A DNA stretch of 64,000 nt. Origin: an uncultured virus (IMG/VR IMGVR_UViG_3300050202_000023). Its lineage: Duplodnaviria > Heunggongvirae > Uroviricota > Caudoviricetes. Positions within the stretch are counted from its first letter, which is position 1; each line of letters opens with the position of its first letter. Under the pieces are notes generated by a model. That model saw nothing but the letters and a program-made list of their open reading frames with translations. It had not been told where the DNA came from and ran no database searches. This document shows, one piece after another, positions 8,050-46,500 of this stretch. Where the stretch lies: the IMG/VR virus record IMGVR_UViG_3300050202_000023; one strand, given 5' to 3'. The translations under genes and the position numbers were made by a program.

Positions 8050-8444
8050 TCTATACTGAAGAGAAACTTAGTGATGAATTTACTAAACACCATATAGGGT
8101 TTAAAAACTTACCTGTCGTTATACATCAGTTTACAGATATAGACAAAGGGCCTCCCCATGACCATCCGGCAACGTTTAGAACTCACATTCTTAAAGGAAG
8201 TTATTTAGAGTTTATCTACAAAAAGACAAAGCATGGTTGGAAAAATGTATATAAATTACGAAAAACCGGTGATAGTTTTATTATACGGGCTAATCATATT
8301 CACCAAATTGTAGCGTTACCTCAAGGGGAATGTTGGACCGTTAGTATTGGGCCAAAACCTACACAAACTTGGGGGTTTTATGAATTTCGGGCAGATGGTG
8401 CTTATAAACGAGCACATGATCAAGAAACATGGACCAAATTATAA
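8046..8444 (+). CDS. cupin-fold protein
   Basis: PHDHP...ILKGSYLE...HIHQI...WGF motifs. Confidence 0.7.
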   Translation: MIYTEEKLSDEFTKHHIGFKNLPVVIHQFTDIDKGPPHDHPATFRTHILKGSYLEFIYKKTKHGWKNVYKLRKTGDSFIIRANHIHQIVALPQGECWTVSIGPKPTQTWGFYEFRADGAYKRAHDQETWTKL

Positions 8445-33700: not shown

Positions 33701-36700
33701 CTCAACACGTTGTTTACTGTTATCGGTGTTTGTCTGATATTCGTGTTTATATCTAGCATCACGAAGGTTTGTCAGATTATCAAGAGCCCCCTGTCGTTTT
33801 AATGCTTTGTACTCATCAGAGCCAGTACGAATAGTATCCCACGTCAAATAACCAGCTTCGTTTCTGTATACTTTCTTAACCAGTGAATAGTCCAAACTGG
33901 ATACGTGAGCCAGTGAGTCACCGGCACGGCTATGACTTAACACACCTTTTGAAAAGTGGGTAAAGAAAAGACTTATAAACTTATCTCTGGTTAATGGTAA
34001 GTTTAAGTTATAGCCTGATGCAGGGTCAAATAATTGAGCTGTTTGTTTATCCGTACCAGTTTTAACAACTGTTTCAAACGCTTTTTGTAAATACCGTTTT
34101 AGATCAAGATTACCAGCAGCATCCTCAAAAAGCTTGTCAGCAACATTATAGTTAATCCGGTCACGACTAGTTAAGTATTCCTGCCAAAGAAGCTCAGTTT
34201 TGTTTTTATCCAAAAACTGATCTTTAAACCAGAACTGGGCATCTGGTCCAAGCTCATTAGCAATAATCTCAACCATTTGAGTCGGATCAACAATGTGTTC
34301 GTGACCAGATGGTGTTTCTGACTGAAGTCCGTAATAGTTTAAGTCAAACAGGTTTACATTTTTATCCTCAATAGAAGTCCAGTCAACTGTTTGTTTATCC
34401 GTTAATTTAGTATGTACGTTAGCATTAAGTGTTTTACTGGCTGTTAATGGAGTTACCAGATCAATACGAGCATCAACACTGTCAAATACCCAGTTACCAT
34501 CTACATACTTAAAGCCCTCCATACGAAGACGTTTAGCATGAAGATTTTCCCGACCAATAATAGGTACCCACCTGTAATAATTACCACCATACGTACTTAC
34601 CTCAATACCATCCTTTTTAAGTTTGATACGGTTGTACTTATCTATAGTAGCATTTCTATAAAATTCTTCCTCTGAAATTAATTCAGGTTCTGACGTTACT
34701 TCTTTCGTTAAAACAGATACAGACAGTTTTTTATACTGTTGTCCATCATCCCCAACAGTTTTTTCCGAGTTAAGCATAACTCCGGCAGCATTAAGATTAT
34801 CAATGTCTGCTTTAGTTCTGGGCTCACCCTTATCAATCTTGTCTAGTATATTAGATACCTGAGTAGTCAGCTTACCTTGAGCATATAAACTTATTCGTCT
34901 TGAATGAATTGTATCATGTCCCTGAGCATCAGCAATGTCAACAGAATTACCGGTAACGTCAGAATTTGCTGTTGGTTCAGCAGTAGTTACTATATTAAAA
35001 TACTGTGGGGCTTTATCAATACTCAGTTCGGGTGCTGCAAAAGGTACAGCAAAGCTTTGAATGGCAGCATTAAATCCCTTAGCCCGTTTGGCATTATCAA
35101 TACCGTCATTTTTATAAAGTAAAGCAGCATCTCCGTATTCAATTTGACCAATAGCTACACCATTAAGAAAGTCAGAAACCAGCTTAGTTTCTAATAATTC
35201 TTTGGTCATTTTTCGATCAAGTACTTTAGTAGGCTCGTCTCTGGTAAGATTCCATAGACCATGTTTAGCATATCTGGCTTTGTGCTGATAAATAATATCT
35301 GATACACTTTTTTGCAATACATCTTTATGAGCTTCATAGTCAAACTCAATATCAAGAGCAGCTTGTACAACTAGGTTTTCAATACCCGTATTAAGACCCG
35401 GTATAGCTTGAGTATTACCCAGTAGCCCAATAAGTGTATCAGAAAATTGTAGCCCACGATAATCTTTACTATTAGTAGGTACATATATTTCTACCGATAC
35501 ACCTTTATAATCTACCGTTTTCTTTAGTAAAGCTTTACCAGTATTATAGTTTGTTAGTACATCTGTACTATCAAAAGTTGGTGTTGTTTTGCCATAGGTA
35601 ATACCTTTATCTACAAAGTCAGTAATTATTAAACTTTTATATACATTTCTTATACGATCATACTCCTTTTTAATTTCGTCCAAAAATAAAGTAGAACCAG
35701 CATCTGTAAGTTTACCTTCTTTAATAACGTTTTCCAGTACTGGTACATTTAAATACTCACCAGTTTTAGAAGCCTCACGGTTTCCAAGAAATACCGGGGC
35801 AATCCGTTTACCCTTTACAATAGTAGCTGTAGGACCAACAAATGAGTTTAAATTAAACAGGTCAAACTCTCTTGGAGATAGATCACCAAAGGTTGTACCG
35901 GTTAAAGCAGTTGCTCCAGCTTTAGATGTAGTTACATCTTTCTCATTTCTGGTTAAATGAGTTTGTTGTAAACCATCTACTGAAAATGCAGTAAACAAGT
36001 GCTTGTTTTCCTGATAAAATGAATCAGAAAATAGTTTTTTTAGTAAATGGTTTTCCTGTAAAGCCCAAGCATCTTCTTTAAGATAGATAGCTTCACCGTT
36101 ATTATATCGAAGTAATGTACGTTGTCCGGTTTTATATAGATTACTTAGTTTACTTAGTGAACTGTCTGTAAACCAAGTAAACATATCAAGACTGTATGTT
36201 TTCTTCTGGAACGAATAAATTACTTTGTCATTAGCATTAACATAACTTGATTCAGTGGCTGTTTCGTCAAACAAGGCATTACCCTCAGCAATATTTTTAA
36301 TACTGCTTAGCATACCACTTAACCGGCCAAGTTTAAGAGCCTCTTTATTATCAGTTATAGCAAACGGGGAATACTGAGCCTGTCCATTATATTCTTTAAT
36401 AAGCTTTACATCGACTGAAGTAAATTGATATTGTTTTGGTATGTCAAACATACCAATCAATTTACCAGAAGGTGTAGCTTCAATTGTAGGAGCCCACTGA
36501 GGATACTGTCTAACTGCTTCTGTGGTTAAGACATACTGAACGTAGGCATCCGACAGTTTAATACCAGCCTGACTAAATAAGGCTTTAAACTTTTTGGATT
36601 CTGCTTGTACAGCTTGGGTAAACTGCTGTTTCTTTTCTAAATCATCCAGACTGTTAAAAGCATCCTGTTCAGCCGTAAGTTTAGTTGAGTTTGTTTTTGG

Positions 36701-38731
36701 TAAGAAAAAATCATTCAACCAAGCATCTGGTATTTCTGTATTAGCTTTATTAGAAAGTCCGTTATAGTTAGCTTTCCACTTTTCAAGTAAGTCTTTTCCA
36801 GCCCGGTTTGTATTGGCATTACTACTTACAGACAAACCACGTACCGGGTCAATCCGCATGTTAATGTTTTCCCGTTTCCAGAGATCAAACCCTTTTAATG
36901 TTCGAACCAGTAACTGTTTACTAGCTGAAGATAAGTATGTACCTAGTGAATTATTATCAATGTGATAAAATAATTCTTCTTTAATTCTCCCTGTATTGGT
37001 TTCTTGAAGTTTTGTAAAATAAGTTTTAGCTTCTTTATAAGCTTCTTTTTTAGCTAACTCGGGATTAGCTGCCTGTAAAGCAAAAGCAAGCTGTAACGGA
37101 CTTTCTGGAGTCTCAGTTAATCCCAGTTCTTTAATTAATGAATCTAGTTCTGGCTTAGCCTTATACGTAATAGGAGCCATGTCTTTTAACAACTGGTCAG
37201 CAAAAGCTCCTGTAGCATCTGTATCATCAAAGCTGGTATAAATTAACAGCTTCTTTAACCGTTCATTTAAGTCAACTGTGTTACTGACAGCCCGTACCAA
37301 TCCGTAGTAAACCTGATTTGTGTTTACAATATCAATAATAGGTAGCTCAAACTCAACACCGCCAGTCTTGATTTTATGATATTGTAGCACACCATCAATT
37401 TGCCGGTGTTTACCAGTTAACGCAATGTATTGTTTAATACTGGCAGAAAGTCCGTTGTATCCACCAAGCTCGTTAGCTTCTTTTCCGTATCCAGAAAATT
37501 CCTGCATTCTGGCTCCAAACTCATCTTCATCAAGTTCATCCTGAAGATTAGTCACAACCTGTGAGTTAACTAAATATTCTTTAACATCAGCCGTTATAGC
37601 AGAATACTCCGGGTTATCTTCAAGTACTTTAAAGTCCTGAGCATTTCTCCGGGTTGGGGATAAAGCACCAGCAATTAACCGATACTGTTTAGCCAGTACG
37701 GTACCATTAACAGAAGTACCCTTATACTTTTCTTTAATAGCTACAGCCTGATCAAGATACTGTTTAGAAAAAGCTTCAATAGCTATCTGTATACGTTGTT
37801 GTTCAGATAAATCTGAAGTTTCATCTCGGTTTTTAAGTTGTAAAGCAAGACCAGATATATTCCTGATTAGCTGTTCACTTTCCCGTTGGTGTACTTTAGT
37901 ATCATCAGCCAGTGTAATAAGTCTGGTAGAAGGTGCAGCAGTCTGTGGATTTGAGTCTACAATCCGGGCAGTTTTATACTCACCTTGATTTATTTTGTTA
38001 TAAAAAGTTGTAGCATAAAACTCGTTTGCTTTGTACAAAGACCTAAGCTTGTCCAGTCCTTTATATAAGGTATCAATAAGTTGCTGTACAAACCGGGCTA
38101 CTTTTTGTCCAAGAAATGGTTTTAGTCTAGACTCTAAATCCAACCGTGCCTGTTTAGGTGTACCATATACGGTGTGCCGTACATAGTCCTGAGCCAAAGC
38201 TTCTTCATACAACCGATTGTATCCGTCCTGTTCAGATAGTATACTATAAGTTTCCGGCAATGTCTTTAACTGGTATTGGTAGTATTCTTTAATGCTGGAG
38301 AACCCAAGGGCCTTTAGCTGAGACTTTAATAACGCTTGTCCAGTCTTATACAGAGCTTCCTGCTCGTTGAGTGGGATAAGTCGTTGGAATACAGCGTGAA
38401 AAACTTCTTCAGATAAAGCCCCTCGGGTTATGTCCTTGCCAAAATAAAATACATCTTTCCAGAAAGCAGCTTCTGTAGTCTGTGGAACAAGTGCTGGAAT
38501 AGACTCAATTGAATCCATCTTAAACAAGTCCAGATTAACTAACGTGTTCAGTAATTGATATGCTTGTTCCGTTGGTAGTACATCAGATTCTTTTTGATTT
38601 TGATAACTATCAAATGAGGGCATCCAGAAATTATGTTGAGCATAAATCTGGTAGGTCTTTGCTAGACCATAGGTTTCAATAAAACGTCTGTTGTTAGGTT
38701 CTGACTTGTTCAGACAAAGCAATTGTTTCAT
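27722..38731 (-). CDS. virion-packaged RNA polymerase polyprotein (3669 aa) with a SLOG-like insert and a C-terminal SF1B helicase
   Basis: GVRIPSQDKHS and catalytic GSDFDIDK (about 33287-33310); helicase motifs GPGGSGKT, IDEVSM, GDPVQIP, TIHKSQG and YVGLSR. Confidence 0.85.
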   Translation of the reverse strand: MKQLLCLNKSEPNNRRFIETYGLAKTYQIYAQHNFWMPSFDSYQNQKESDVLPTEQAYQLLNTLVNLDLFKMDSIESIPALVPQTTEAAFWKDVFYFGKDITRGALSEEVFHAVFQRLIPLNEQEALYKTGQALLKSQLKALGFSSIKEYYQYQLKTLPETYSILSEQDGYNRLYEEALAQDYVRHTVYGTPKQARLDLESRLKPFLGQKVARFVQQLIDTLYKGLDKLRSLYKANEFYATTFYNKINQGEYKTARIVDSNPQTAAPSTRLITLADDTKVHQRESEQLIRNISGLALQLKNRDETSDLSEQQRIQIAIEAFSKQYLDQAVAIKEKYKGTSVNGTVLAKQYRLIAGALSPTRRNAQDFKVLEDNPEYSAITADVKEYLVNSQVVTNLQDELDEDEFGARMQEFSGYGKEANELGGYNGLSASIKQYIALTGKHRQIDGVLQYHKIKTGGVEFELPIIDIVNTNQVYYGLVRAVSNTVDLNERLKKLLIYTSFDDTDATGAFADQLLKDMAPITYKAKPELDSLIKELGLTETPESPLQLAFALQAANPELAKKEAYKEAKTYFTKLQETNTGRIKEELFYHIDNNSLGTYLSSASKQLLVRTLKGFDLWKRENINMRIDPVRGLSVSSNANTNRAGKDLLEKWKANYNGLSNKANTEIPDAWLNDFFLPKTNSTKLTAEQDAFNSLDDLEKKQQFTQAVQAESKKFKALFSQAGIKLSDAYVQYVLTTEAVRQYPQWAPTIEATPSGKLIGMFDIPKQYQFTSVDVKLIKEYNGQAQYSPFAITDNKEALKLGRLSGMLSSIKNIAEGNALFDETATESSYVNANDKVIYSFQKKTYSLDMFTWFTDSSLSKLSNLYKTGQRTLLRYNNGEAIYLKEDAWALQENHLLKKLFSDSFYQENKHLFTAFSVDGLQQTHLTRNEKDVTTSKAGATALTGTTFGDLSPREFDLFNLNSFVGPTATIVKGKRIAPVFLGNREASKTGEYLNVPVLENVIKEGKLTDAGSTLFLDEIKKEYDRIRNVYKSLIITDFVDKGITYGKTTPTFDSTDVLTNYNTGKALLKKTVDYKGVSVEIYVPTNSKDYRGLQFSDTLIGLLGNTQAIPGLNTGIENLVVQAALDIEFDYEAHKDVLQKSVSDIIYQHKARYAKHGLWNLTRDEPTKVLDRKMTKELLETKLVSDFLNGVAIGQIEYGDAALLYKNDGIDNAKRAKGFNAAIQSFAVPFAAPELSIDKAPQYFNIVTTAEPTANSDVTGNSVDIADAQGHDTIHSRRISLYAQGKLTTQVSNILDKIDKGEPRTKADIDNLNAAGVMLNSEKTVGDDGQQYKKLSVSVLTKEVTSEPELISEEEFYRNATIDKYNRIKLKKDGIEVSTYGGNYYRWVPIIGRENLHAKRLRMEGFKYVDGNWVFDSVDARIDLVTPLTASKTLNANVHTKLTDKQTVDWTSIEDKNVNLFDLNYYGLQSETPSGHEHIVDPTQMVEIIANELGPDAQFWFKDQFLDKNKTELLWQEYLTSRDRINYNVADKLFEDAAGNLDLKRYLQKAFETVVKTGTDKQTAQLFDPASGYNLNLPLTRDKFISLFFTHFSKGVLSHSRAGDSLAHVSSLDYSLVKKVYRNEAGYLTWDTIRTGSDEYKALKRQGALDNLTNLRDARYKHEYQTNTDNSKQRVEPEFYLDSKGNKVDSWFTQAKTLLASSPTMSTTSLSNTMTPVVYVLDSLRHAKPRWETVNKQLVETGYFDEALMPVHDLRISNIDKSLRYSFGVRIPSQDKHSAVNVEWVDTLPEYMGSSIVLTKEIIELSGSDFDIDKLYQTRTEGYWTGDVFTPYGTAETTMGKWEEFTKYALANYPSIKKELKKILLEPEFKDVKAELEKVTQTLTDLTDDEAWAEYTSGTLEQRKQDLNKSYQKAVGRALSFFGFPATFDEFNKLNYRSQNTLNVGATHNKMLALQQSMLANSTTLDDTDPNGGQYNQPASLDKYNNIQDSKENGVNLFGDTSNRAASWWPMVHSQIHEKNQIGKALIGVSVNANLFMINAVKFQFSVDPSFRMAFNDGKLHDGLYKEKQYYSDGSPVLDASGLPVRVFDIISTITTANTDEAKEGKNAFFKLNGDAQSVVIHMVGQGYSLEDSLIFVNQPVVQQFTQLRQQAKNVKANTGIVIPSEKILGTLSDDQIAKKILKLGVDDSISTREYTTKELRVALAYSKATKEQQTAFTAAPNTKTLNEAVLADFIRMLRVSDYAGNLVKFIKLKKGFGQDLAAFDGLVRASKNLQFGKDGEFPIDIYEKLDSNPKKAAQYLQLINDLVPQSDKRQREVLFRRSPFFDFFKDKLSVVFKAFGAEKKELLDKAIETFTFTTLHQEQSTSTPLELNSVYVDGAEARISEKLNNFKAQYAYTRINETTGEVEKGPFADNSLFSLLQSEDRQEIAAINLNTIGKLRPEQQEELLDSFQDLYTRQVLTTIDGVEGYYLLGKGLADELVNYYIVKDGWQFTMKSISKLFGPSIFTSVSNRLTSIFKGSGFDINGGAAKLANALGRDITYQPLIERIKPPKTTSELYSLFEDNEVLYYENLQGVRQDKVSNQVVITIPVLNKEDSFRVATGLRIKIEKNIGTFPKFIVMEQEVYDEDSDENTLKPFTYELASLITPNGQQYTPSDLQNSTSYKGTRARYVQVVHAGTKNVSSANALGDHYTEANKSLLNKHVQLSTGAAKVYYTMLSQTKTNPVSAIETVVPTTSIDDSFDPFEQTYEADVEDISYYEEESTLLENDLYSVDNQVDVSYISGMNTTENTTESTQTSTNPKDYTNHTGGAKLSDAAWDIIGREFGVVNHKHYREPGTTEVDSLELRKAGVKATELDTAIYDEGQPKATIAARQMGRIESNHQVRSNYMIRNWAQVKYADAVYALGTIIPKGAIMDHGKKALIDQVKGGTGYAVQMAINENKPVYIYDGTKDSWFTWSGRDFIKVPTPALTKNFAGIGSRTLSTQEVIDKSLQAIRDVYTKTFKSEVNPVQESISTVVEYNYYGQILKVTLDNSGLAVDVDIKQSASETNIKYQERKQKILDAYNNNGGLNPQIATKPLEQPTEELIESKTGFTFTHKGKTIDTAFQLTAGQEQALKGLIDFALGDTNEDFITLQGPGGSGKTALIGYLEKYLNRHNFVYSAPTHAASVELAFATAKTGNTKLPLTTTSSWGASFDNRTGKSTVQIRKKMAERLKNSNNILVIDEVSMLSPAEYDNLKEVVKAKDIKVVFMGDPVQIPAVNVKNPVTKEVSKAFTEPNQLKLTEVKRTSNTDILTVLGRLRTVVDSRILKLAEHNDKLNYVAGREWDKAIGRVFSEDPLNTVMLSYTNAGAKAWNIKIRDLFEREGDLKKDDIVVGYAGYNSKQVDRNDIGNSMLYKIDNVTKDGSLYKLVTSSAKLDKLIELGINLESNKGYGTYYQLSTQDAFTFSELTQADFDKNNQLLSNVFRDLHETKQKAIRKEIYWETYDTKETTVQDFFRRALTGNDYIFDPAQDKVVPFVKTLKYHKDLKEKNSHLFIGKSIDFGHAITIHKSQGTSIPKVFFDTDTLPREDSSLLIQNGIQIGSEKQSLSYVGLSRVSDSLYINSTNPIHFVNEVDAQNTPPPRRTFTDLYDPESEYIPTDLSNNGISPEDLFGDQSSDDFKLDQPCA

Positions 38732-39346: not shown

Positions 39347-39847
39347 TTGAAAAAAGATACAAACTCTAGAAAAACAGTACAGTTAGGGGCTCCTATTGGG
39401 ACTACCTCTAATAGACTTAAAAAGTCTATAATGCATTCTTTGTTAAAAAGACTTTCACTTAACTTTTGTTATAGATGTGCAGCAGAAATACTTACACCTG
39501 AAGAATTATCTATAGATCATAAAATAGATTGGTTAGACTCAAAAAATCCTACTGAATTATTTTATAATATTGATAATATTGCTTTTTCACATCACAGTTG
39601 TAATTGTGCTGCTGCTAAAAAGACAAATCAAAAATGTACAATAAGAAGCTCAGCCTCAAAGTTAAAAGGTGTTAGAAAACCAGATAGTAGAAAAATACAT
39701 TTTAGTATGGTTTTTAGACTCGATGGAAAGACTTTAATTTTTGGTGGGTATAAAACAGCTCTAGAAGCAGCTTTAGCTTATGATAAAAAAGCTATCGAGA
39801 TTTACGGAGACAAAGCAGTTACAAATAAAAATTTAGGGTTATTGTAA
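39347..39847 (+). CDS. HNH-AP2 homing endonuclease
   Basis: CYRC, SIDHK...NIAFSHHSCN (HNH) and ALEAALAYDKKAIEIYG (AP2). Confidence 0.8.
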   Translation: MKKDTNSRKTVQLGAPIGTTSNRLKKSIMHSLLKRLSLNFCYRCAAEILTPEELSIDHKIDWLDSKNPTELFYNIDNIAFSHHSCNCAAAKKTNQKCTIRSSASKLKGVRKPDSRKIHFSMVFRLDGKTLIFGGYKTALEAALAYDKKAIEIYGDKAVTNKNLGLL

Positions 39848-40117: not shown

Positions 40118-40597
40118 ATGAAGATAGAAACAAAATTTCCATATAATGACTATGTTGGTTACATTGTTAATAATCCTAAAGATCGTAAAAAATTATGTCT
40201 AGTTCATAAACAAACAAAGCAACGAACTACAGTTTCCTATGCTCGTTATTTAATGGCAGTAAAAGAAAAAAGACTACTAAACTCGAATGAGCAGGTTGAT
40301 CACATCGACGAAAATCGACATAACGATGTTATTGAAAACCTTCAAATATTAACAGGTTTTGAAAATAGTAAAAAAAATAGGATTGCCAGAAAGCTATCAA
40401 GAAAATGGCTTTTACTTGAATGTCCGGGTTGTAAAATTGTATTTGAAAAATTACATAATCAATCTTTTATAACAAAAAAAGGATTATTCAATGCTTGTTC
40501 AAATACATGTAAGTATAATGTGCTAAAAAAGGGCCTTAGCATTGAGGAACTTAAGCTAGTAGGTGAAAGACAAATACTAAAAGAATTTAGAGTATAA
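40118..40597 (+). CDS. HNH homing endonuclease with a C-terminal zinc ribbon
   Basis: QVDHIDENRHNDVIENLQIL; CPGC...CSNTC. Confidence 0.85.
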   Translation: MKIETKFPYNDYVGYIVNNPKDRKKLCLVHKQTKQRTTVSYARYLMAVKEKRLLNSNEQVDHIDENRHNDVIENLQILTGFENSKKNRIARKLSRKWLLLECPGCKIVFEKLHNQSFITKKGLFNACSNTCKYNVLKKGLSIEELKLVGERQILKEFRV

Positions 40598-40707: not shown

Positions 40708-41232
40708 TTATTTCCAATTATTATTTTGTGGATAATGATGTTCTGCATGACAGTTAGCACATAAAACTAGACAGTGTTTAATTTCTTGTTCAATTTTTAT
40801 AATACTTGTGTTACTAAAAGTTCGCATATCAAGACTAAAGTTTTTAATCCCTATATTATGATGAAAATGCAACGCTGACTGATTTTTATCGTAGCCACAT
40901 TTAGAACAAGCCCCTCCTAAAAGTTTTAGATAATGAGCTTTTCTTTTGTTTCCACGTTTATATTGACAATAAGTAGTATTACTATTATCTTGTTTGTGTT
41001 TTTTGTAATGAGCTTTTTGTCTACAGTTAGCAGAACAATATTTAACTTGAGTAGAGGTTAAGTCAGTACTACATATAAAGCATTTACTATCGCCTATATT
41101 AGTGTTAGTTGTATGGAGACCGTGCTTTTTAATCCAGTACCGAATAGTAGTTTGACTTACTTTTAATTCATCTGCTATTTTGTAAGTTGATTTACCTAAA
41201 ACGATTAATTGTTGTAAATTAGTTTTTTCCAT
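40708..41232 (-). CDS. HTH-zinc finger-HNH endonuclease, antisense to the tRNAs
   Basis: STYKIADELKVSQTTIRYWIKK (HTH), CFIC/YCSANC, CSKCGY...LHFHH...LCANCHAEHH. Confidence 0.85.
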   Translation of the reverse strand: MEKTNLQQLIVLGKSTYKIADELKVSQTTIRYWIKKHGLHTTNTNIGDSKCFICSTDLTSTQVKYCSANCRQKAHYKKHKQDNSNTTYCQYKRGNKRKAHYLKLLGGACSKCGYDKNQSALHFHHNIGIKNFSLDMRTFSNTSIIKIEQEIKHCLVLCANCHAEHHYPQNNNWK

Positions 41233-41317
41233 AGCTTACTTGTTTATAATTTTTATAAATATAACTAATGAGCTAGAAGAATACTAGTTAAAGTTAAAGT
41301 TTTTTACATTATTATAA

Positions 41318-41397
41318 CCAGAGTTACCAGTGGATGCTTATACCATCTATACCTGTAGCGGTTGTTGAAAACGGGAGTTCAAATCTCTCACTCTGGA
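41318..41397 (+). ncRNA. non-canonical tRNA-Ile(TAT)-like RNA with no D-arm and a long variable region
   Basis: CCAGAGT/ACTCTGG acceptor; GTGGATG-CTTATAC-CATCTAT; 22-nt insert; GGGAG-TTCAAAT-CTCTC. Confidence 0.65.
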
Positions 41398-41439
41398 CTC
41401 ATACCTAGACAGTCACAAGTTCGAATCTTGTCGGTCCCA
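41398..41439 (+). pseudogene. 3' half of a tRNA(CAT) gene
   Basis: CT-CAT-AC-CTAGA-CAGTC-ACAAG-TTCGAAT-CTTGT-CGGTCCC-A, with no matching 5' half found. Confidence 0.6.
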
Positions 41440-41503
41440 CTAAACTAATTTTTAATTTCTAAACACCATGTATTATGGAAAGTGACAAGAGTGACAAACT
41501 AAT

Positions 41504-41578
41504 GTACTCGTAGCAAAATGTGGCTTTGCATCTCACTTTTAATGAGAAATAAAATGGGTTCGACTCCCATCGGGTACA
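41504..41578 (+). tRNA. trnK: tRNA-Lys(TTT)
   Basis: GTACTCG/CGGGTAC; TCTCA-CTTTTAA-TGAGA; ATGGG-TTCGACT-CCCAT. Confidence 0.85.
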
Positions 41579-41579
41579 C

Positions 41580-41655
41580 TATTAGATACCTAATATTGGT
41601 AGTGGGAATAATCTGCAAAATTATTGAAGTCAGGGTTCGATTCCCTGTCTAATCT
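41580..41655 (+). tRNA. trnC: tRNA-Cys(GCA), first acceptor pair mismatched
   Basis: ATTAGA/TCTAAT; ATAAT-CTGCAAA-ATTAT; CAGGG-TTCGATT-CCCTG; U73. Confidence 0.75.
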
Positions 41656-41661
41656 CAACAT

Positions 41662-41734
41662 GGTGCTGTTACCAAGATGGTCAAGGTACCAGACTGAAAA
41701 TCTGGCTATGTAGGTTCGAGTCCTACCAGTACCA
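41662..41734 (+). tRNA. trnF: tRNA-Phe(GAA)
   Basis: GGTGCTG/CAGTACC; CCAGA-CTGAAAA-TCTGG. Confidence 0.9.
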
Positions 41735-41806
41735 CAAAATAATAATTGGTTAATACTAATTGTTATTGTAATTTAGCAGTGTTATTCACCTTAAACATTT
41801 ACAACT

Positions 41807-41842
41807 ATGCTGTAGATAACTATTCGAGGACCGTGTTCATAA
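41807..41842 (+). promoter_or_regulatory. putative leader ORF M-L-(TAG)-I-T-I-R-G-P-C-S-stop
   Basis: ATG CTG TAG ATA ACT ATT CGA GGA CCG TGT TCA TAA after an A-rich initiation region; 49 nt upstream of the operon containing Pth2. Confidence 0.55.
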
Positions 41843-41891
41843 ATGTTTGCTGGAATTTGAAATAATCAGTTTTAAATTTAACAATCATATT

Positions 41892-42197
41892 ATGAATGCT
41901 TTAAAAGAGTTAATCAAAGAAAAAGCTGCTTTGCAGCCAGTTTACAAGAATCAACGAAAAACAGTAAACCTTGTCGGTGAACGTACAATAGCACCTGATA
42001 CAGCTACTGCTGAGCACAAGTATAACCGAGAAGACTTAAAAGAATTGTATATAGCTTATACAATCCTTAGAGAAAAAGACCCTTTACTGGCTTGTGCTGG
42101 ATATAAGGACTTTTCAACTTGGGAATTAAACCGGATTCAAACAATTATAGATCGTTTCCAGAGCGAGTTTATCCGTGAAGTTGTACATACTAGTTGA
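41892..42197 (+). CDS. hypothetical helical protein overlapping the Pth2-like gene
   Basis: ATG 41892, in frame with track ORF 41847; NQRKTV...ELYIAYTILR. Confidence 0.75.
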   Translation: MNALKELIKEKAALQPVYKNQRKTVNLVGERTIAPDTATAEHKYNREDLKELYIAYTILREKDPLLACAGYKDFSTWELNRIQTIIDRFQSEFIREVVHTS

Positions 42198-42459
42198 TTC
42201 TAGTTTACCATTAGCTTACCGAAGTGTGCAGGGTGGTCATGCTGTAGCCCAGTGGTTACTCGATCATCCTGCACAAAGCTGGAATAATCACATACTAGTA
42301 TACTTAGATTGTCCTGATCTGGAACTGTGGCAAACTAAATTACAACGGTACCGGTTAGACTATAGTGTATTTATTGAACCTGATCTTGGTAATCAATTAA
42401 CTGCACTGGCCGTATACACGGATAAGAAAGTTTTATCCCGGCTAAATTTAATGAATTAA
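42175..42459 (+). CDS. peptidyl-tRNA hydrolase type 2 (Pth2)-like protein
   Basis: KLYILVDSSL, VQGGHAVA and FIEPDLGNQLTALA match the Pth2-fold motifs. Confidence 0.8.
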   Translation: MKLYILVDSSLPLAYRSVQGGHAVAQWLLDHPAQSWNNHILVYLDCPDLELWQTKLQRYRLDYSVFIEPDLGNQLTALAVYTDKKVLSRLNLMN

Positions 42460-42466
42460 CAACGTT

Positions 42467-42538
42467 GTTTGCTTAGCATTAGGGTAATGCACCAGCTTCT
42501 AAACCTGACTTAAAGGGGTTCGATCCCCCTAGCAAACA
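42467..42538 (+). tRNA. putative amber-suppressor tRNA (anticodon CTA) with a weak anticodon stem
   Basis: GTTTGCT/AGCAAAC; GCAT/ATGC D-stem; CCAGC-TT-CTA-AA-CCTGA (only 3 central pairs); AGGGG-TTCGATC-CCCCT. An Arg(TCT) register pairs worse. Confidence 0.6.
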
Positions 42539-42544
42539 CTAAAT

Positions 42545-42616
42545 GGCTTTATGGTGTAATGGATAGCATGATTCATTTCGGCTGAATTGGTGAGAGTTCG
42601 AATCTTTCTAAAGCTA
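42545..42616 (+). tRNA. trnR: tRNA-Arg(TCG)
   Basis: GGCTTTA/TAAAGCT; ATTCA-TTTCGGC-TGAAT. Confidence 0.8.
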
Positions 42617-42621
42617 CAAAT

Positions 42622-42703
42622 GCTTCTGTGGTGGAACTGGTATACACGTTTGACTTAAAATCAAATGCTCTAGGGATTGGGGGTTCAAATCCCCCCAGAA
42701 GTA
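42622..42703 (+). tRNA. trnL: tRNA-Leu(TAA)
   Basis: GCTTCTG/CAGAAGT; TTTGA-CTTAAAA-TCAAA; long variable arm. Confidence 0.9.
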
Positions 42704-42713
42704 CTATTTATAT

Positions 42714-42737
42714 TGCCCTATAGCTCAATTTGTAAGA
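42714..42737 (+). pseudogene. tRNA 5' stub upstream of an HNH promoter
   Basis: TGCCCTA-TA-GCTCAATTTGTAAG, then an AT-rich promoter region. Confidence 0.5.
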
Positions 42738-42760
42738 TTTAAAAATAATAAAAAGTAACA

Positions 42761-42792
42761 CTTGACAAAGACTTTGAGCTATTGTATCTTTG
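42761..42792 (+). promoter_or_regulatory. Bacteroidota-type promoter for HNH 42796 (near-leaderless transcript)
   Basis: CTTG, N20, TATCTTTG, with ATG 3 nt downstream. Confidence 0.7.
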
Positions 42793-42795
42793 AGT

Positions 42796-43383
42796 ATGGG
42801 AAAAGAAGTACTAGAAAGTTACTTAGCATTAGGATATTCAACACGTCGGATTGTTGAAGAATCAGGTTTAGCACAAACAACAGTAAGATACTGGTTAAAA
42901 AAATACAATCTTAAAGCTGTTGGCACTGGTTTTACTAAAAAATGGACTGATAATGAATTAATAGATGCTGTTAAAACAAATAGTTGTGCAGCAGATATTA
43001 TGAGAGCTTTAGGTTTGAAAACTACAGGAACTGGTAATTATGAAACATTAGACAGACATGCTAAACGTTTAAACTTAATTATACCTAGAGGATATAAAAT
43101 CCCTGTTAATACTAAAAACAGAACGGCCTCTGATAAAATGTTTTATTCAAATAGCTCTATAAGTAGATCTACTATTAAAAGACAATTATTATCTGAAGGT
43201 TTAGGAACCACTTGTAATATATGCAAACAATCTAATACGTGGCTTAATAAGCCCTTAGTATTAATATTAGACCATATTAATGGGATTAATAACGACAATC
43301 GAAGAGAAAACTTACAATTTGTTTGTCCAAATTGTAATTCACAACTAAGTACACATTGTAAAAAAAATAAAACTGGGGTATAG
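42796..43383 (+). CDS. HTH-HNH homing endonuclease
   Basis: STRRIVEESGLAQTTVRYWLKK; CNIC; LILDHINGINNDNRRENLQFVCPNC. Confidence 0.85.
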   Translation: MGKEVLESYLALGYSTRRIVEESGLAQTTVRYWLKKYNLKAVGTGFTKKWTDNELIDAVKTNSCAADIMRALGLKTTGTGNYETLDRHAKRLNLIIPRGYKIPVNTKNRTASDKMFYSNSSISRSTIKRQLLSEGLGTTCNICKQSNTWLNKPLVLILDHINGINNDNRRENLQFVCPNCNSQLSTHCKKNKTGV

Positions 43384-43447
43384 TATAATGGCAGTACAAA
43401 AGTTTTTGGAGCTTTTTGTGATAGTTCGAATCTATCTGCCCCATCCA
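43374..43447 (+). tRNA. trnQ: tRNA-Gln(TTG)
   Basis: TGGGGTA/TGCCCCA; AAAGT-TTTTGGA-GCTTT; encoded CCA; overlaps the HNH stop codon. Confidence 0.85.
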
Positions 43448-43517
43448 AGCAAGTATCTTAATGGCAAAGTCCCGGATTGTGTCTCCGGTTATCAGGGTTC
43501 GACTCCCTGCTTGCTGA
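43448..43517 (+). tRNA. trnH: tRNA-His(GTG), shortened acceptor 5' end
   Basis: AGCAAG/CTTGCT; CCGGA-TTGTGTC-TCCGG; CAGGG-TTCGACT-CCCTG. Confidence 0.7.
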
Positions 43518-43523
43518 CTTTAC

Positions 43524-43564
43524 AAAAAAACCCTGCTTAGTTTATCTAGGCAGGGTTTCTTGTT
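43524..43564. terminator. bidirectional intrinsic terminator
   Basis: A7-CCCTGCTTAG-tttat-CTAGGCAGGG-TTTCTT between convergent units. Confidence 0.8.
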
Positions 43565-46500
43565 TTATTCACATTGTCTCATTAATTCTTTAACTATATC
43601 AGAAACATCTGGGTTTGGATTAATTTGCTGACGAGTAGTAGGAACACCCTTAACTACTGGTTTTTCCAATAAAGCAGCTACTGAATAAATGATAGAATCA
43701 TCTCCACTTTCATAAATTTCATTTATGTCATCAGGATTAATTGAAGCTACATTAGAATCATCAATTGGTAAACCTGTAAGTTCATCATTAATTAGTGAGG
43801 CAACTTCAGAATCAAGTCCTAAATCAACTAATGTTACTAGTGCTTTATTTAGATTGGTAGTAACTACATCATGCGGTACTTCAGCAACTTCAGGTTCAGG
43901 TAAAGCATTCTCTAACTGAGTTGGTAACGTTGTTGGGGCTAATACTTCAATTTCATCACCAGTAATGGGCTGAACCGGTAGTAAATTCCAATTCATATCA
44001 ATCCGTTTAAATACGGCTTTAGATGTAACAGCTACAAGACGTTCATACTGGTTATTTGAACCCTGCTGAATATCAATTGTTACTGGAGGATTTTGTAAAG
44101 GTTCTTTAGTATTTTGTTTCTTAAACGTAGATAAAACTTTTTCAAGTTCTTTTTGAAGTACGGCTTCGTCTCCTTGTTGAACTACATTAATTGGAATACT
44201 GTCAGAATAATAACTTCCCTCACTGGTAGTAACCATTAAATTTAGTTTTGAGTCTGATCCACCAAGTCTGTTACCAACAATTTCTCCTTGCATAACTAGA
44301 CCTCCTTTATCCCGGTACACGATAAAGAATCCTTCTTTACCACTCTGGAAAGGTTTATTTTCTTTAATCAAACCAAGTAAGTTACTAATACCGGTATCAT
44401 TTACTACTCTAAATGGAAAATAAGTACTAGTACCTCCTCTAAGTGTTTCAGCATCAGTTCCTTGAACCAGTAAATACATACCGGGGGTTTTAGTCTTCCA
44501 TGTATCAGGAGCTGTTAACTTAGCTAACATAGCACTACCCGGAGCAAACAGTTGATTATACTGTTGTTCAGTAACAATTGTTGTGTCTGCTTGGTCACCG
44601 GGAACATGGGTTATAATTGGCTTACCAGTGTTTTTCTCAAACTCAAGTCTGACAATAAGTTTAGTATCACCTTGAAATCCAGAAGTTACTAATTTACTAA
44701 TTGGAAGTTTATTTCTTGCAAAGAAAGGTTTACTTTTAAGTGTATTTAATGATAGGTTATTAAGTAACTGTACTGTTGTTGGAGTTATCTGTCCATCATT
44801 AAATGTGTTTACTATAGTATCAACTATTTCCCGGTATCTCATAGCCGAATCCATAAACTCATCATACTTGGTAAACGTGTTAATCCAGCCCTGTTTTTGT
44901 AAAAACTCGTAAAGGGTTGGTCCACCAAGACTAAGTACATCTGTTAATGCTGGTGTTTGTAGTGTGTCATGAACAGGTAAAAGTCGAAGTTTTCTTTTTT
45001 GATCAAGTGTTAGTACGTCAGCTTTGTGCAATTCTGCTAAAAGTAGTTTAGTAATAAATAAACTTTCGTCTATTGTAATAACTAAAAAAGGTTTATTATC
45101 AGGATTACCTTTTCTGGTACCAACTAAATACATAGGTGTAGTAACCCGGTGTAAACCCGGATCTTGTAGTAAAGGCTTTGCTTTACTAACTTTTGCTTTT
45201 ACAGCATCTTCATCAGGTTCAAGAAGTGACCAGTCAACGTGATCAGACAACTTTTGATTAGCTGGTAAGTTTGTTATAAACTCACGGTCTTCCGCTAACT
45301 GTTCCCAAATAATTCTATTTGCTGTATTCTTTTCCCGTTGCTCATCGGATAGTTTTATATCATCCTCAAGTTCATCTTGATTAAACCATATTGGAAAATC
45401 ATCAATAACAGTCATTGCTGTATTAAAAAACTTTCCAGCTAAATCTCCAAGATCACTAATTTTAGTAAACACCCTATTTTGAATAGGTACGTACTTTTTT
45501 GCTGGAGGACGTACTACTGGATTTACTACAGGTTTAGTAGCTACGGGTACAGGGGGTGTTGGTGGTGCTGGAGGTTCTTCTCCAAATAAATCATCACCTG
45601 TTATTGGAGATAATCCAGCAACTTGTTCAGGAGTTTCTAAAGGAATTTCAACCTCATCCGGGTCAATTGGCTTTTCTACTACAGGCTTGGCTGGATACAG
45701 TAAAGCATAGTCCCGTATAATCTCTTCAATTAGATCTGTAGGTAACACTCCGGGATTATCCAGTACCTTCTTTTCGATTAACTCTTTTAACTTTTTGCCA
45801 TCACTATCTAGTTTATCCTGTCTTATACGAATCGTTTCATCGTCTTCTTCAGCTAATTCTAAAACAGCCTGTACAGTATCGTCGTAAGCCTGTTTCTTAG
45901 CTTTTTCTGTGGTAAGCTTTTCTGTAATTTCCGTAGTTAACGTATCCAGTGTTACAACTGGGTCATTCATAAACTGAGCTATATTCTGATCAATGTATTG
46001 ATCCAGTGGACCTAGATAAAACTCAGCATCTTTTAAGTTTGGAAACAGCTTTAGAATACCGGCTTTAAGTTTTGATTTGGCCTGAATTTCTACAGCATCA
46101 TTTTGAGACTTTTGAAAAGCAAGATACTTTTCTGATTTTTTAACCCACGTATCAAATGCATTTTGACTGGTAAGACCGTTAAAAAGATCACTAAGTTTTA
46201 CAATAGAATCTTTTAAACTGTTAGCGTCAAAACTTGCCTGAAGTAATTCTTTTAGTTCTTCGTCAGTAGTTGTCCGACTAATTTTATTATCAGTTAATAA
46301 ATCCTCTTTAATAGCTTTAAGTACATCCTCATAATTACCAAAGCCATTACTTTGTAACTGAACAATAGTCATTAACCGTTTGGTTAACTGATCACGTTCT
46401 TTTTGCTGAGAAGCCTGTACGTCTTTTTCAAGTTTATCAAGACCATCTGTAGCATTTTCATTTTCACCTAAAGCACGAGACAGATGTTCACGCTTAGCTA

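Follow-up and report, generated by a model that had tools for sequence, protein, structure and literature searches.

A conserved phage module of gated leader, hairpin, two small proteins and suppressor tRNA that probably senses stop-codon suppression

How might a phage that brings its own suppressor tRNA into a cell gauge how well that tRNA competes with the release factor of the host? The question is raised by a locus in the window analyzed here, a 64,000-nucleotide (64-kb) stretch of DNA from an uncultured Caudoviricetes virus. The phage follows the standard code (87.8% of the window lies in ORFs of 100 aa or longer, and 3 of these 46 ORFs end in TAG), and the locus, which sits within a tRNA cluster, begins with a 12-codon frame interrupted by TAG (41807-41842), followed by a gene for a 101-aa protein, a gene for a Pth2-like (peptidyl-tRNA hydrolase 2-like) protein and a tRNA with anticodon CUA. 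All four lie where a first-pass annotation had placed them. Our reading, which we hold to be likely, is that the window carries a complete copy of a conserved phage module of five ordered parts that works as a sensor of stop-codon suppression. In order, these are a gated leader with a stall-type tail, a hairpin, a helical protein, a Pth2-fold ester hydrolase, and a suppressor tRNA that reads the gate. The module is present in many large phages, where it probably gauges the phage's own tRNA overriding a stop codon.

The leader (41807..41842, + strand), read directly from the sequence, comprises ATG (41807), CTG, TAG (41813-41815), ATA ACT ATT, CGA GGA CCG, TGT TCA, and a terminal TAA (41840-41842), and its translation would be M-L-[TAG]-I-T-I-R-G-P-C-S-stop. 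Here the TAG at 41813-41815 is the gate codon, and R-G-P at 41825-41833 is the putative arrest core. The leader ends 49 nt before the start of the 101-aa gene (41892), on the same strand. Its upstream neighbor is a tRNA-Phe(GAA) (41662..41735, + strand), and no promoter-like site was found between that tRNA and the leader. When the entire window was searched in six frames with a leader regular expression, only two matches were returned, this leader and a frame at 8074-8157. A near-identity DNA search of 41000-44000 against phage records found no match.

A collection of viral contigs yielded relatives of the Pth2-like gene at 80 loci, with 63 distinct 700-nt upstream regions. These regions were searched with a leader pattern that begins with M and 1-12 residues, continues with TAG, and ends with R[GSA]x?P or PP-stop. 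The pattern is present, in the same layout as in the window, in 53 of the 63 regions. Over 100 dinucleotide shuffles, the mean was 0.52 and the maximum 2 of 63; the reverse complement gave 1 of 63, and stretches elsewhere in the loci gave 3 of 59 and 2 of 61. Because examples had been seen before the pattern was composed, these controls gauge its specificity and are no substitute for a blind test. Judged by this recurrence among related sequences, the leader in the window is more than a chance occurrence, and the frame of ATG, a few codons, TAG, and RGP that the first-pass annotation had set beforehand as its check is indeed conserved upstream of homologs. Further, a DNA pattern for one leader subtype has 27 matches across all viral contigs; 11 of these are true leaders, every one of them with a gene of the 101-aa family next (11/11), and the remaining 16 are chance matches without a leader frame. 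After clustering at 80% identity or more, the pattern is absent from 6 of 34 clusters, one of which has a leader further upstream (L050), two of which have variant leaders recognized by eye (L062 and L064), and three of which have none (L043, L057, and L070). No leader was found at the Mycobacterium phage copy of the hydrolase and tRNA.

Among 42 distinct leaders, which are 9-25 residues long and have one or (in 16 of the 42) two gate codons, the tail motif is the sole common part. The tails fall into the classes RGP (10 leaders), RGSP (5), RGTP (2), RGDP (1), RSP (6), KGP (2), and PP-stop (13); a further RAP/RAPP class (3 of 42 leaders) looks spurious. The tail Arg is encoded by AGA (8), CGT (13), CGC (2), AGG (1), and CGA (3), and this use of synonymous codons points to selection on the tail at the peptide level. 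According to the sections available to us, tails of the RAPP/RGPP/RAGP type are established arrest cores that tolerate a varied N-terminal context (PMC12992588), and tested arrest cores RGPP, RAPP, and RAGP appear also in PMC10951233, PMC10951299, PMC10987492, and PMC7897499. The relatives' tails, mostly RGPD, RGSP, or RSP, include none of the tested RGPP, RAPP, or RAGP, and the window leader, with its R-G-P-C tail, contains none of RAPP, RGPP, RAPG, and RAGP. RGPP was spotted by eye in one place, the long variant leader of L062.

The identity of the gate varies together with that of the tRNA. Counted by cluster, a TAG gate accompanies a CUA anticodon in 23 cases and a TGA gate a UCA anticodon in three, with no mismatched pair, and in the Lak megaphage records Lak-A2 and Lak-B4 the gate is TAA and a tRNA(UUA) lies directly upstream of the leader. 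Across these sequences, the gate codon tracks the anticodon of the linked suppressor tRNA, a match that rests on few independent switches because the loci are related, the three opal loci forming one clade and the Lak records another. Hydrolase gene and suppressor are also linked: the first + strand tRNA after the Pth2-like gene is a suppressor in 72 of the 80 viral loci (69 CUA and 3 UCA), and an adjacent suppressor is found in 30 of 34 clusters (at least 80% identity) and lacking in four. On the same strand, 7 nt separate the genes from the tRNA in the window, and many loci have a gap of 0-50 nt. The same linkage of Pth2-like gene and suppressor tRNA occurs on a contig binned with a Bacillota MAG, and in the cultured Mycobacterium phage ScoobyDoobyDoo gene 79, named “peptidyl tRNA hydrolase,” is followed by gene 80, a tRNA(cta).

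The window tRNA (42467-42538, + strand), of amber suppressor type, begins 7 nt beyond the 94-aa ORF and matches Rfam RF00005 with 47.0 bits, where the gathering score is 29. In the cmscan alignment, the 7-nt anticodon loop UUCUAAA places CUA at 34-36. A regular 5-bp anticodon stem is lacking: there are three central Watson-Crick pairs, as the first-pass annotation had cautioned, and positions 27-43 (C/A) and 31-39 (C/C) are non-standard. ARAGORN makes no call for 42467-42538, and in view of this rejection and the two non-standard pairs the tRNA may be weak. A 31-39 mismatch was also read by eye in the tRNAs of L002, L023, L057, and L058. Among the distinct tRNAs compared, from the loci and the window, the four nearest to the window tRNA are the CUA suppressors of L073, L055, L042, and L030. 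A decayed Arg(UCU) tRNA, the identity that was to have counted against the original idea, is rejected, given these CUA neighbors, the CUA at 34-36, and a UCU register shift that leaves no stem pair.

Between the leader and the first downstream gene, the + strand is predicted to fold into a masking hairpin (41833..41899). Its 5′ arm (41833-41845) extends from the last base of the Pro codon to just beyond the leader stop, its 3′ arm (41886-41899) encloses the ATG at 41892, and an inner stem-loop occupies 41847-41884. The predicted MFE is -23 kcal/mol (z = -2.27), and cross-arm pairing amounts to 19.0 expected pairs versus 5.4 in shuffled sequence, with 1 of 50 shuffles as high. In 41 loci, pairing of the post-motif stretch with the start region has a median of 18.6 expected pairs versus 3.9 in shuffles; in 36 of them at most two of 50 shuffles reach the observed value, the other five being L023, L028, L031, L032, and L059. 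Each sequence was folded and shuffled separately because MAFFT alignments put the arms out of register, so that column-wise covariation cannot be counted, and RNAalifold on two leader-to-start subfamily alignments gave 0 predicted pairs and no consensus structure. At the level of sequence, these shuffle comparisons demonstrate arm-to-arm complementarity, and in the predicted conserved hairpin the 3′ arm includes or abuts the start codon.

The position of a ribosome on the leader would matter for this structure. The modeled probability that the window ATG is unpaired is 0.00 both for free RNA and for a ribosome positioned at the TAG, and becomes 0.33 once the footprint is at R-G-P. Across the loci, when a footprint at the motif is masked, the start region becomes more accessible in the model, the median going from 0.29 to 0.65, and 34 of 41 loci gain at least 0.2. 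In silico, the downstream start is hidden by a structure that a stalled ribosome would open. The arrangement differs from that of a trpL-type attenuator, with terminator hairpin, U-run, and antiterminator, in that the + strand of 41400-42900 gave no terminator-like site; instead, the 3′ arm of the hairpin holds the start codon.

The gene that would be regulated first (41892..42197, + strand) belongs to a family of small all-helical proteins. Relatives of the 101-aa protein were found by tblastn directly upstream of the Pth2-like gene in 27 loci (E < 1e-5). The profile of alignment A2 collects 222 proteins, whose names are uninformative throughout, although two are listed under PF24954/DUF7763; Pfam on alignment A2 gives scattered weak matches, with DUF7763 in 3 of 31 (E = 0.0011), and PHROGs none (0/31). 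The AF2 model (pLDDT 87) has four helices, three of them long, and fold searches with it return generic helical hairpins alone (Foldseek best E = 1.8; VIA-align best Z = 6.1). A search of the ESM Atlas gave no usable match to this protein, and Pfam assigned no family to either the 101-aa or the 94-aa protein of the window.

The second gene (42175..42459, + strand, GTG start) overlaps the first by 23 nt and encodes a 94-aa protein. By its predicted structure (AF2, pLDDT 93.7), this protein has the Pth2 alpha/beta fold: the best 15 Foldseek matches comprise 14 Pth2-family chains, from 2zv3, 3erj, 1q7s, 1wn2, 1xty, 1rlk, and 1rzw, and 2gax_A, a protein of unknown function at rank 12. E-values go down to 1.7e-5, and TM scores are 0.54-0.76 over the best 15 and 0.63-0.76 over the best 14. 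The structural model agrees with the Pth2-like assignment of the first-pass annotation, with matches to archaeal and eukaryotic Pth2 structures (PF01981; 2zv3, 3erj, 1q7s, and 1xty) at TM 0.63-0.76. The phage protein is shorter than Pth2 (94 aa versus about 115), and the one residue-level alignment that was obtained places non-Lys residues opposite the GKGK stretch of the Pth2 chain 2zv3; Pth2 catalytic residues are not given in the accessible part of PMC4929431. At the sequence level, all 24 of 24 family members match phrog_3668 (“hydrolase”), and two of the 24 match Pfam PTH2 (PF01981) at E = 2.7e-5. The window protein is below the gathering threshold and has no match in Pfam and NCBIfam at E up to 10. 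In sequence searches of the PDB, the A1 profile gets to 2zv3 at just E = 0.32, and a search with P0024 by itself gives no match. Outside phages the family is almost absent, with a single locus in the genomes of 185,579 species.

These parts suggest the following sequence of events. A ribosome would start on the leader, and if the release factor wins at the gate, it would be gone before reaching the hairpin, which would remain closed, and the two proteins would not be made. If a charged suppressor tRNA wins, the ribosome would continue and stall at R-G-P with Pro in the A site, or, in relatives with the other tail, at Pro-Pro-stop. The footprint of the stalled ribosome would then cover the 5′ arm, the start region would open, and the helical protein and hydrolase would be translated. 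In this way the module would report the efficiency of the phage's own suppressor tRNA at that stop codon, and the two proteins would be made solely when suppression succeeds. The contest at its center, between release-factor termination and read-through to R-G-P, had been proposed in the first-pass annotation, and it gains support from the conserved frame, from a gate codon that switches with the anticodon, and from a tRNA whose nearest relatives are CUA suppressors. Translation of the leader, arrest at the motif, the ON sign, and the jobs of both proteins are what we infer from this layout. As to those jobs, our guess is that the proteins clear or limit peptidyl- or aminoacyl-tRNA arising from suppression, and that they may also release the complex stalled on the leader.

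The same sensor might have a different output, controlling transcription (as in tnaC, by way of Rho access or termination) or the decay of the mRNA, possibly with a negative sign, in which case the operon and its tRNA would be shut at high suppression. We consider this unlikely, with a small chance of being correct. The tRNA does lie just behind the genes on the same strand, at the short distances given above, and engineered switches with UAG in a leader work through a rut site (PMC6412442, accessible sections); moreover, the results are compatible with either sign. However, in the conserved hairpin it is the 3′ arm that carries or adjoins the start codon, a scan of the + strand over 41400-42900 gave no terminator-like site, and the Lak tRNA, lying upstream of the leader, cannot be gated by it. 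A gate that turns TGA or TAA where the tRNA is UCA or UUA is, in turn, hard to reconcile with a leader that is just another small coding gene of a TAG-recoded phage, where TAG would stand for an amino acid and nothing would be sensed. Many relatives are from recoded phages, and an in-frame stop occurs inside the Pth2-like gene itself in 8 of 34 clusters; yet the window phage keeps its TAG despite the standard code, leaders of 9-25 codons have one or two gate codons versus none or one in the approximately 200 codons of the two downstream genes, and conservation is limited to the tail motif, all of which makes an ordinary gene very improbable.

Agreement between gate and anticodon would be predicted too if an untranslated leader RNA paired with the anticodon of the tRNA, in the manner of a T-box riboswitch. 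We give this even less credence, as the gate codon is always in frame after an ATG, synonymous codons preserve the amino-acid sequence of the tail, a T-box is far larger than these leaders, and 41736-41891 matches no Rfam family at E up to 1. An ATG with a nearby stop is common at 35% G+C, and the leader could be imagined as a chance ORF in an AT-rich spacer, its genes and tRNA mere neighbors in a tRNA cluster; a pattern present in 53 of the 63 distinct regions, where shuffles average 0.52, and a suppressor that comes first downstream in 72 of 80 loci yet accounts for 76 of the 511 tRNAs of these loci, leave almost no probability for this.

Returning to the module as a sensor of suppression, a wider interpretation is possible, which we advance tentatively and hold to be doubtful: a natural “code-switch gauge,” in which the leader weighs the phage's own suppressor tRNA against the host release factor and the hydrolase with its helical partner acts back, making the whole a homeostat for genetic-code change. 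Two gate codons would then give a steeper threshold, the hydrolase would cut the ester bond of suppressor aminoacyl- or peptidyl-tRNA or free the stalled leader complex, and suppression would be kept at a set point, making the system a decoding counterpart of SecM-SecA.

If the sensor reading is true, this would be the first natural element found whose regulatory input is stop-codon suppression itself, and it would extend arrest-peptide sensing from protein export to decoding. The module ties a phage-restricted Pth2-fold enzyme and a helical protein to suppressor tRNAs in Prevotella (Lak) and Mycobacterium phages and on a Bacillota-MAG contig. Being compact, it could offer a ready natural part for genetic-code-expansion circuits, for which similar switches were engineered. 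It also bears on the timing and control of the change from host code to phage code in recoded phages, the trigger of which is described as poorly understood in the available portion of PMC10879173, a theta-ribozyme paper whose same portion contains none of the words “hydrolase,” “leader,” “arrest,” and “pth.”

In a literature search, we found no published description of a module of leader, Pth2, and suppressor tRNA, and several known systems share some of its features. A natural precedent for expression set by release factor versus alternative decoding at an in-frame stop is the autoregulation of prfB, which encodes RF2. There, release factor RF2 is what is sensed, and it competes with a +1 frameshift within the gene under control, whereas in the proposed module a suppressor tRNA provides the alternative, sensing falls to a separate leader, and the output would pass through a stall and a hairpin. 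Minigenes of the lambda bar type are two-codon ORFs that cause peptidyl-tRNA drop-off. The window leader, read up to its TAG, has this form (ATG CTG TAG), and a dipeptide minigene was part of the first-pass annotation; the form is not conserved, however, and does not hold in general, the distance from ATG to gate being 1-10 codons in relatives and a single codon in just 5 of 42 distinct leaders.

ApdA, ApdP, ApcA, and SecM have in common with the module a short upstream ORF on the same strand with a tail of the Arg-(Ala/Gly)-Pro type near its end, and in these systems a stall, putative in the module, is thought to remodel the mRNA such that the next gene is translated. They differ in input, which is protein export or membrane insertion, with release by pulling force, in the known systems and in-frame stop read-through, as proposed, in the module. 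Unlike RAPP-like and SecM arrest peptides, the module peptides are too short to exit the ribosome tunnel, their tails are RGPC, RGPD, RGSP, RSP, or PP-stop in place of RGPP, and the genes downstream encode a Pth2-fold and a helical protein. The word “phage” has no occurrence in the accessible text of PMC12992588. The “code change module” of recoded phages, with its suppressor tRNA, tRNA synthetase, and release factor, is likewise a phage cluster around a suppressor tRNA encoded in the standard code; in the part of its description available to us, “hydrolase” and “leader” do not occur, and neither a Pth2-like gene nor a sensing ORF is named (bioRxiv 10.1101/2021.08.26.457843). Finally, the logic proposed here resembles that of the switches of Liu, Qi, Yanofsky and Arkin (2011), in which, as presented in the accessible sections, TAG is placed in a leader peptide and downstream expression needs read-through by a suppressor tRNA (PMC6412442). 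Those switches are synthetic, use tna and trp leaders, and control transcription via a rut site, whereas the phage module is natural, is widespread in phages, and appears to act on a hairpin at the start region.

The first-pass annotation had proposed an amber-sensing module made up of a short leader, an unknown gene, a Pth2 gene and a tRNA(CUA), and each of these components was found in place. The leader begins with ATG at 41807 and runs through CTG, a TAG at 41813-41815 (the gate codon) and ATA ACT ATT CGA GGA CCG TGT TCA to a TAA at 41840-41842, and would read as ML[TAG]ITIRGPCS. A 101-aa ORF (41892-42197) lies 49 nt 3' of the leader and overlaps by 23 nt a 94-aa ORF (42175-42459), which is followed after 7 nt by the tRNA (42467-42538; Rfam 47 bits vs. 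a gathering score of 29). The loop of this tRNA in the Rfam alignment is UUCUAAA, and the anticodon is therefore CUA, as first read. It is absent from the ARAGORN calls, which give 12 other tRNAs in the window; cmscan marks pairs 27-43 and 31-39 in its anticodon stem as non-standard, and the four nearest to it among the distinct tRNAs compared are CUA tRNAs of related loci. The surrounding region (39.1-43.5 kb) is a tRNA cluster interspersed with four HNH-type endonuclease genes (39347-39847, 40118-40597, 40708-41232 on the minus strand, and 42790-43383), the last of which stops at TAG. Within the cluster, tRNA-Lys and tRNA-Cys adjoin with zero spacer (41579/41580), and tRNA-Gln and tRNA-His overlap by one base at 43447 (ARAGORN coordinates). 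In a 7-bp hairpin at 41797-41817, the loop contains the leader ATG and the 3' arm contains the TAG; a similar fold occurs in L042, a related viral locus whose leader likewise starts M-L-[TAG], and given the self-complementarity of CTA...TAG this small hairpin could be due to chance.

Pfam returned zero matches for the 94-aa window protein. An alignment of 24 family members yielded a confident model (pLDDT 93.7), and its best 15 Foldseek matches are all Pth2-family structures, including MJ0051, AF2095, Bit1, PH1539 and Sulfolobus Pth2, except 2gax_A, a protein of unknown function at rank 12 (TM 0.54-0.76, or 0.63-0.76 in the top 14; E down to 1.7e-5). All 24 members matched phrog_3668 "hydrolase," and two of the 24 matched Pfam PTH2. 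The 101-aa family is diverse: an alignment of 31 members retrieved 222 proteins in a profile search, none with an informative name. Its model (pLDDT 87) consists of four helices, of which three are long, and structure searches with it matched nothing informative. In relatives, as in the window, the two genes adjoin or overlap.

Searching viral contigs with the Pth2-like alignment gave 272 confirmed relatives, and the analysis continued with the best 80 (locus numbers carry the prefix L). The first plus-strand tRNA 3' of the Pth2-like gene is a suppressor in 72 of these 80 loci (69 CUA and 3 UCA), or in 30 of the 34 clusters into which they fall; suppressors make up only 76 of the 511 tRNAs in the same loci. 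A downstream tRNA is missing in five of the 80, two of which are cut by contig ends, and in three a non-suppressor tRNA comes first, with a CUA tRNA second in one of these (L046). The linked suppressors comprise 44 different sequences, some of which have a long variable arm, and thus the link is to suppression rather than to one tRNA lineage. Those of L039, L045, L046, L049, L056 and L059 are CUA tRNAs of type II shape (86-92 nt), other linked CUA tRNAs resemble tRNA-Trp, and lineages probably differ in the amino acid put in at the gate codon. Among genomes of 185,579 species, the sole match was a MAG contig labelled Bacillota, on which the Pth2-like gene is again paired with a suppressor tRNA. 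The gene is also present in 15 Lak megaphage records. ScoobyDoobyDoo, a cultured Mycobacterium phage, has a gene 79 annotated "peptidyl tRNA hydrolase," with tRNA(cta) as gene 80 ~180 nt after it (L081:2477-3087); this locus has neither the 101-aa gene nor a leader of the module type. A GC-rich hairpin lies between its gene 79 and the tRNA.

In the 160 nt upstream of homologues of the 101-aa gene, the same kind of frame was found repeatedly, as in MNK[TAG]IQTRGDP, MKKT[TAG]IFFARGSP, MTH[TAG]VLNPP-stop, MRY[TAG]VLWPP-stop and the two-gate MKKNSFW[TAG]VSDQFW[TAG]LKLIRGPD. A pattern drawn up after these examples had been seen (M, 1-12 residues, TAG, at most 28 residues, then R[GSA]x?P or PP-stop) occurs in 53 of 63 distinct 700-nt upstream regions, which bears out the proposed conservation of an upstream TAG...RGP-type frame. 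It occurs in 1/63 on the reverse complement, in 3/59 and 2/61 elsewhere in the same loci, in a mean of 0.52/63 (maximum 2/63) over 100 dinucleotide shuffles, and at two places in all six frames of the whole window. The FW[TAG]L..IRGP subtype, searched as a DNA pattern, gave 27 matches in the entire viral collection; 11 are true leaders, and a gene of the 101-aa family comes after all 11.

At the peptide level we counted 42 distinct leaders, with tails RGP (10), RGSP (5), RGTP (2), RGDP (1), RSP (6), KGP (2) and PP-stop (13); the remaining three end in RAP/RAPP and appear spurious. Both arginine codon families are used in the tails (AGA 8, AGG 1, CGT 13, CGC 2, CGA 3), which points to selection on the peptide. 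Two gate codons are present in 16 of the 42. The gate is directly followed by a purine in 39 and by Val or Ile in 31; a purine after UAG is favourable to suppression, and Pro-Pro-stop is a site of slow termination. The two-codon minigene that the first-pass annotation saw in the window leader is not general, because the distance from ATG to gate ranges from 1 to 10 codons. The arrest cores RGPP, RAPP and RAGP work with varied upstream sequence in the tests described in the available text of PMC12992588, but none of the phage tails matches these cores exactly. In L045, L046, L053 and L068 the leader (from ~2528) continues in frame, with no stop after R-G-P-D, into the gene ATG at ~2675, an arrangement that would be understandable if few ribosomes get beyond R-G-P-D. 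Two variant leaders were also seen: L062 (~2170-2420) has a ~60-codon ORF with two TAGs and then V-N-V-R-G-P-P-D, and L064 (~2660-2700) reads M-K-K-V-F-L-[TAG]-I-F-N-[TGA]-G-S-P-stop, its second in-frame stop being of a different type from the first.

The gate codon follows the anticodon. All three loci with a linked UCA tRNA have a TGA gate, for example MKRI[TGA]TRNRGPDNV, with TAA ending the leader; by cluster, the pairings are TAG/CUA 23, TGA/UCA 3 and mismatched 0. The Lak megaphages differ from the other loci in that an ochre-type tRNA(UUA) immediately precedes the leader instead of following the genes (L082:1734-2010 in Prevotella phage Lak-A2; L083:1841-2000 in Lak-B4), and their gate is TAA (MKLQHW[TAA]VTLSRGSP and MKLQHW[TAA]VTCDRGP, respectively). 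In Lak-B4, TAA also closes the frame behind R-G-P. Because the opal loci form a single clade and the Lak phages a second, these amount to few independent switches, and all point in the same direction.

In single-sequence folds, a stretch that begins within the motif or immediately 3' of it base-pairs with the region around the start codon of the following gene. We examined 41 loci of the 63 distinct regions, choosing those in which a leader matches the pattern and the start downstream is unambiguous, and leaving out near-identical copies and L013, L030, L046, L053 and L068. The median number of expected pairs between the two stretches is 18.6, vs. 3.9 in shuffles, and in 36 of the 41 at most two of 50 shuffles reach the observed pairing; L023, L028, L031, L032 and L059 did not pass. 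When a ribosome footprint is masked at the motif, the median accessibility modelled for positions -15 to +5 is 0.65, compared with 0.29 before masking, and 34 of the 41 loci gain 0.2 or more. The window ATG is modelled as fully paired whether the RNA is free or has a ribosome at the TAG; with the footprint at R-G-P, its probability of being unpaired is 0.33, or 0.40 under slightly different settings. Hairpin sequences vary from lineage to lineage, and alignment-based covariation (RNAalifold, two subfamily alignments) gave no consensus structure, the arms being out of register.

The contig is phage-like, encoding giant virion proteins and helicase-domain proteins. In a 3669-aa ORF (27722-38731, minus strand), residues 3102-3612, close to the C-terminus, make up a Dda-like helicase region (phrog_325), and neighbouring this ORF are others of 1517, 1757 and 1483 aa, the last of which matches a family of virion structural proteins. 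Under code 11, 87.8% of the window is covered by ORFs of 100 aa or more, which stop at TAA 38, TGA 5 and TAG 3 times. Over the 64 kb seen, this phage uses the standard code, and it thus appears to combine that code with a full copy of the module, a state that the available text of a recoding preprint discusses as a possible step towards recoding (10.1101/2021.08.26.457843).

We propose that the stall site would be reached only when the cognate suppressor tRNA, not release factor, reads the gate codon, and that the stalled ribosome would then open the 5' hairpin arm and expose the start of the next gene. The leader would therefore be a sensor of suppression, and the genes for the helical and Pth2-fold proteins would be suppression-induced. 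Possible roles of the two proteins include clearing peptidyl-tRNA and stalled complexes that arise from read-through, limiting the charged pool of the suppressor, and releasing the stalled leader complex itself. Four loci have a phage-encoded tmRNA gene no more than a few kb away from the module (L031:1434-1775, L041:99-462, L058:971-1341 and L062:5054-5404), which fits a ribosome-rescue theme.

Titles and abstracts of the papers returned by full-text searches gave no description of the leader or of the link between Pth2 and suppressor tRNAs, and a full-text search found no paper that combines Pth2, suppressor tRNA and bacteriophage. "Hydrolase" and "leader" are absent from the available text of the recoding preprint, as are "hydrolase," "leader," "arrest" and "pth" from the theta-ribozyme paper (PMC10879173), although the supplements could list the hydrolase. 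The closest counterpart is synthetic, with TAG put into tna/trp leaders, as far as the available part of PMC6412442 describes it. The phage module has the same layout as ermC, secM and mifM-type control, in which ribosome stalling opens the 5' arm of a hairpin that otherwise masks the following start, but it differs from these in having an extra gate, a stop codon placed before the putative stall site.
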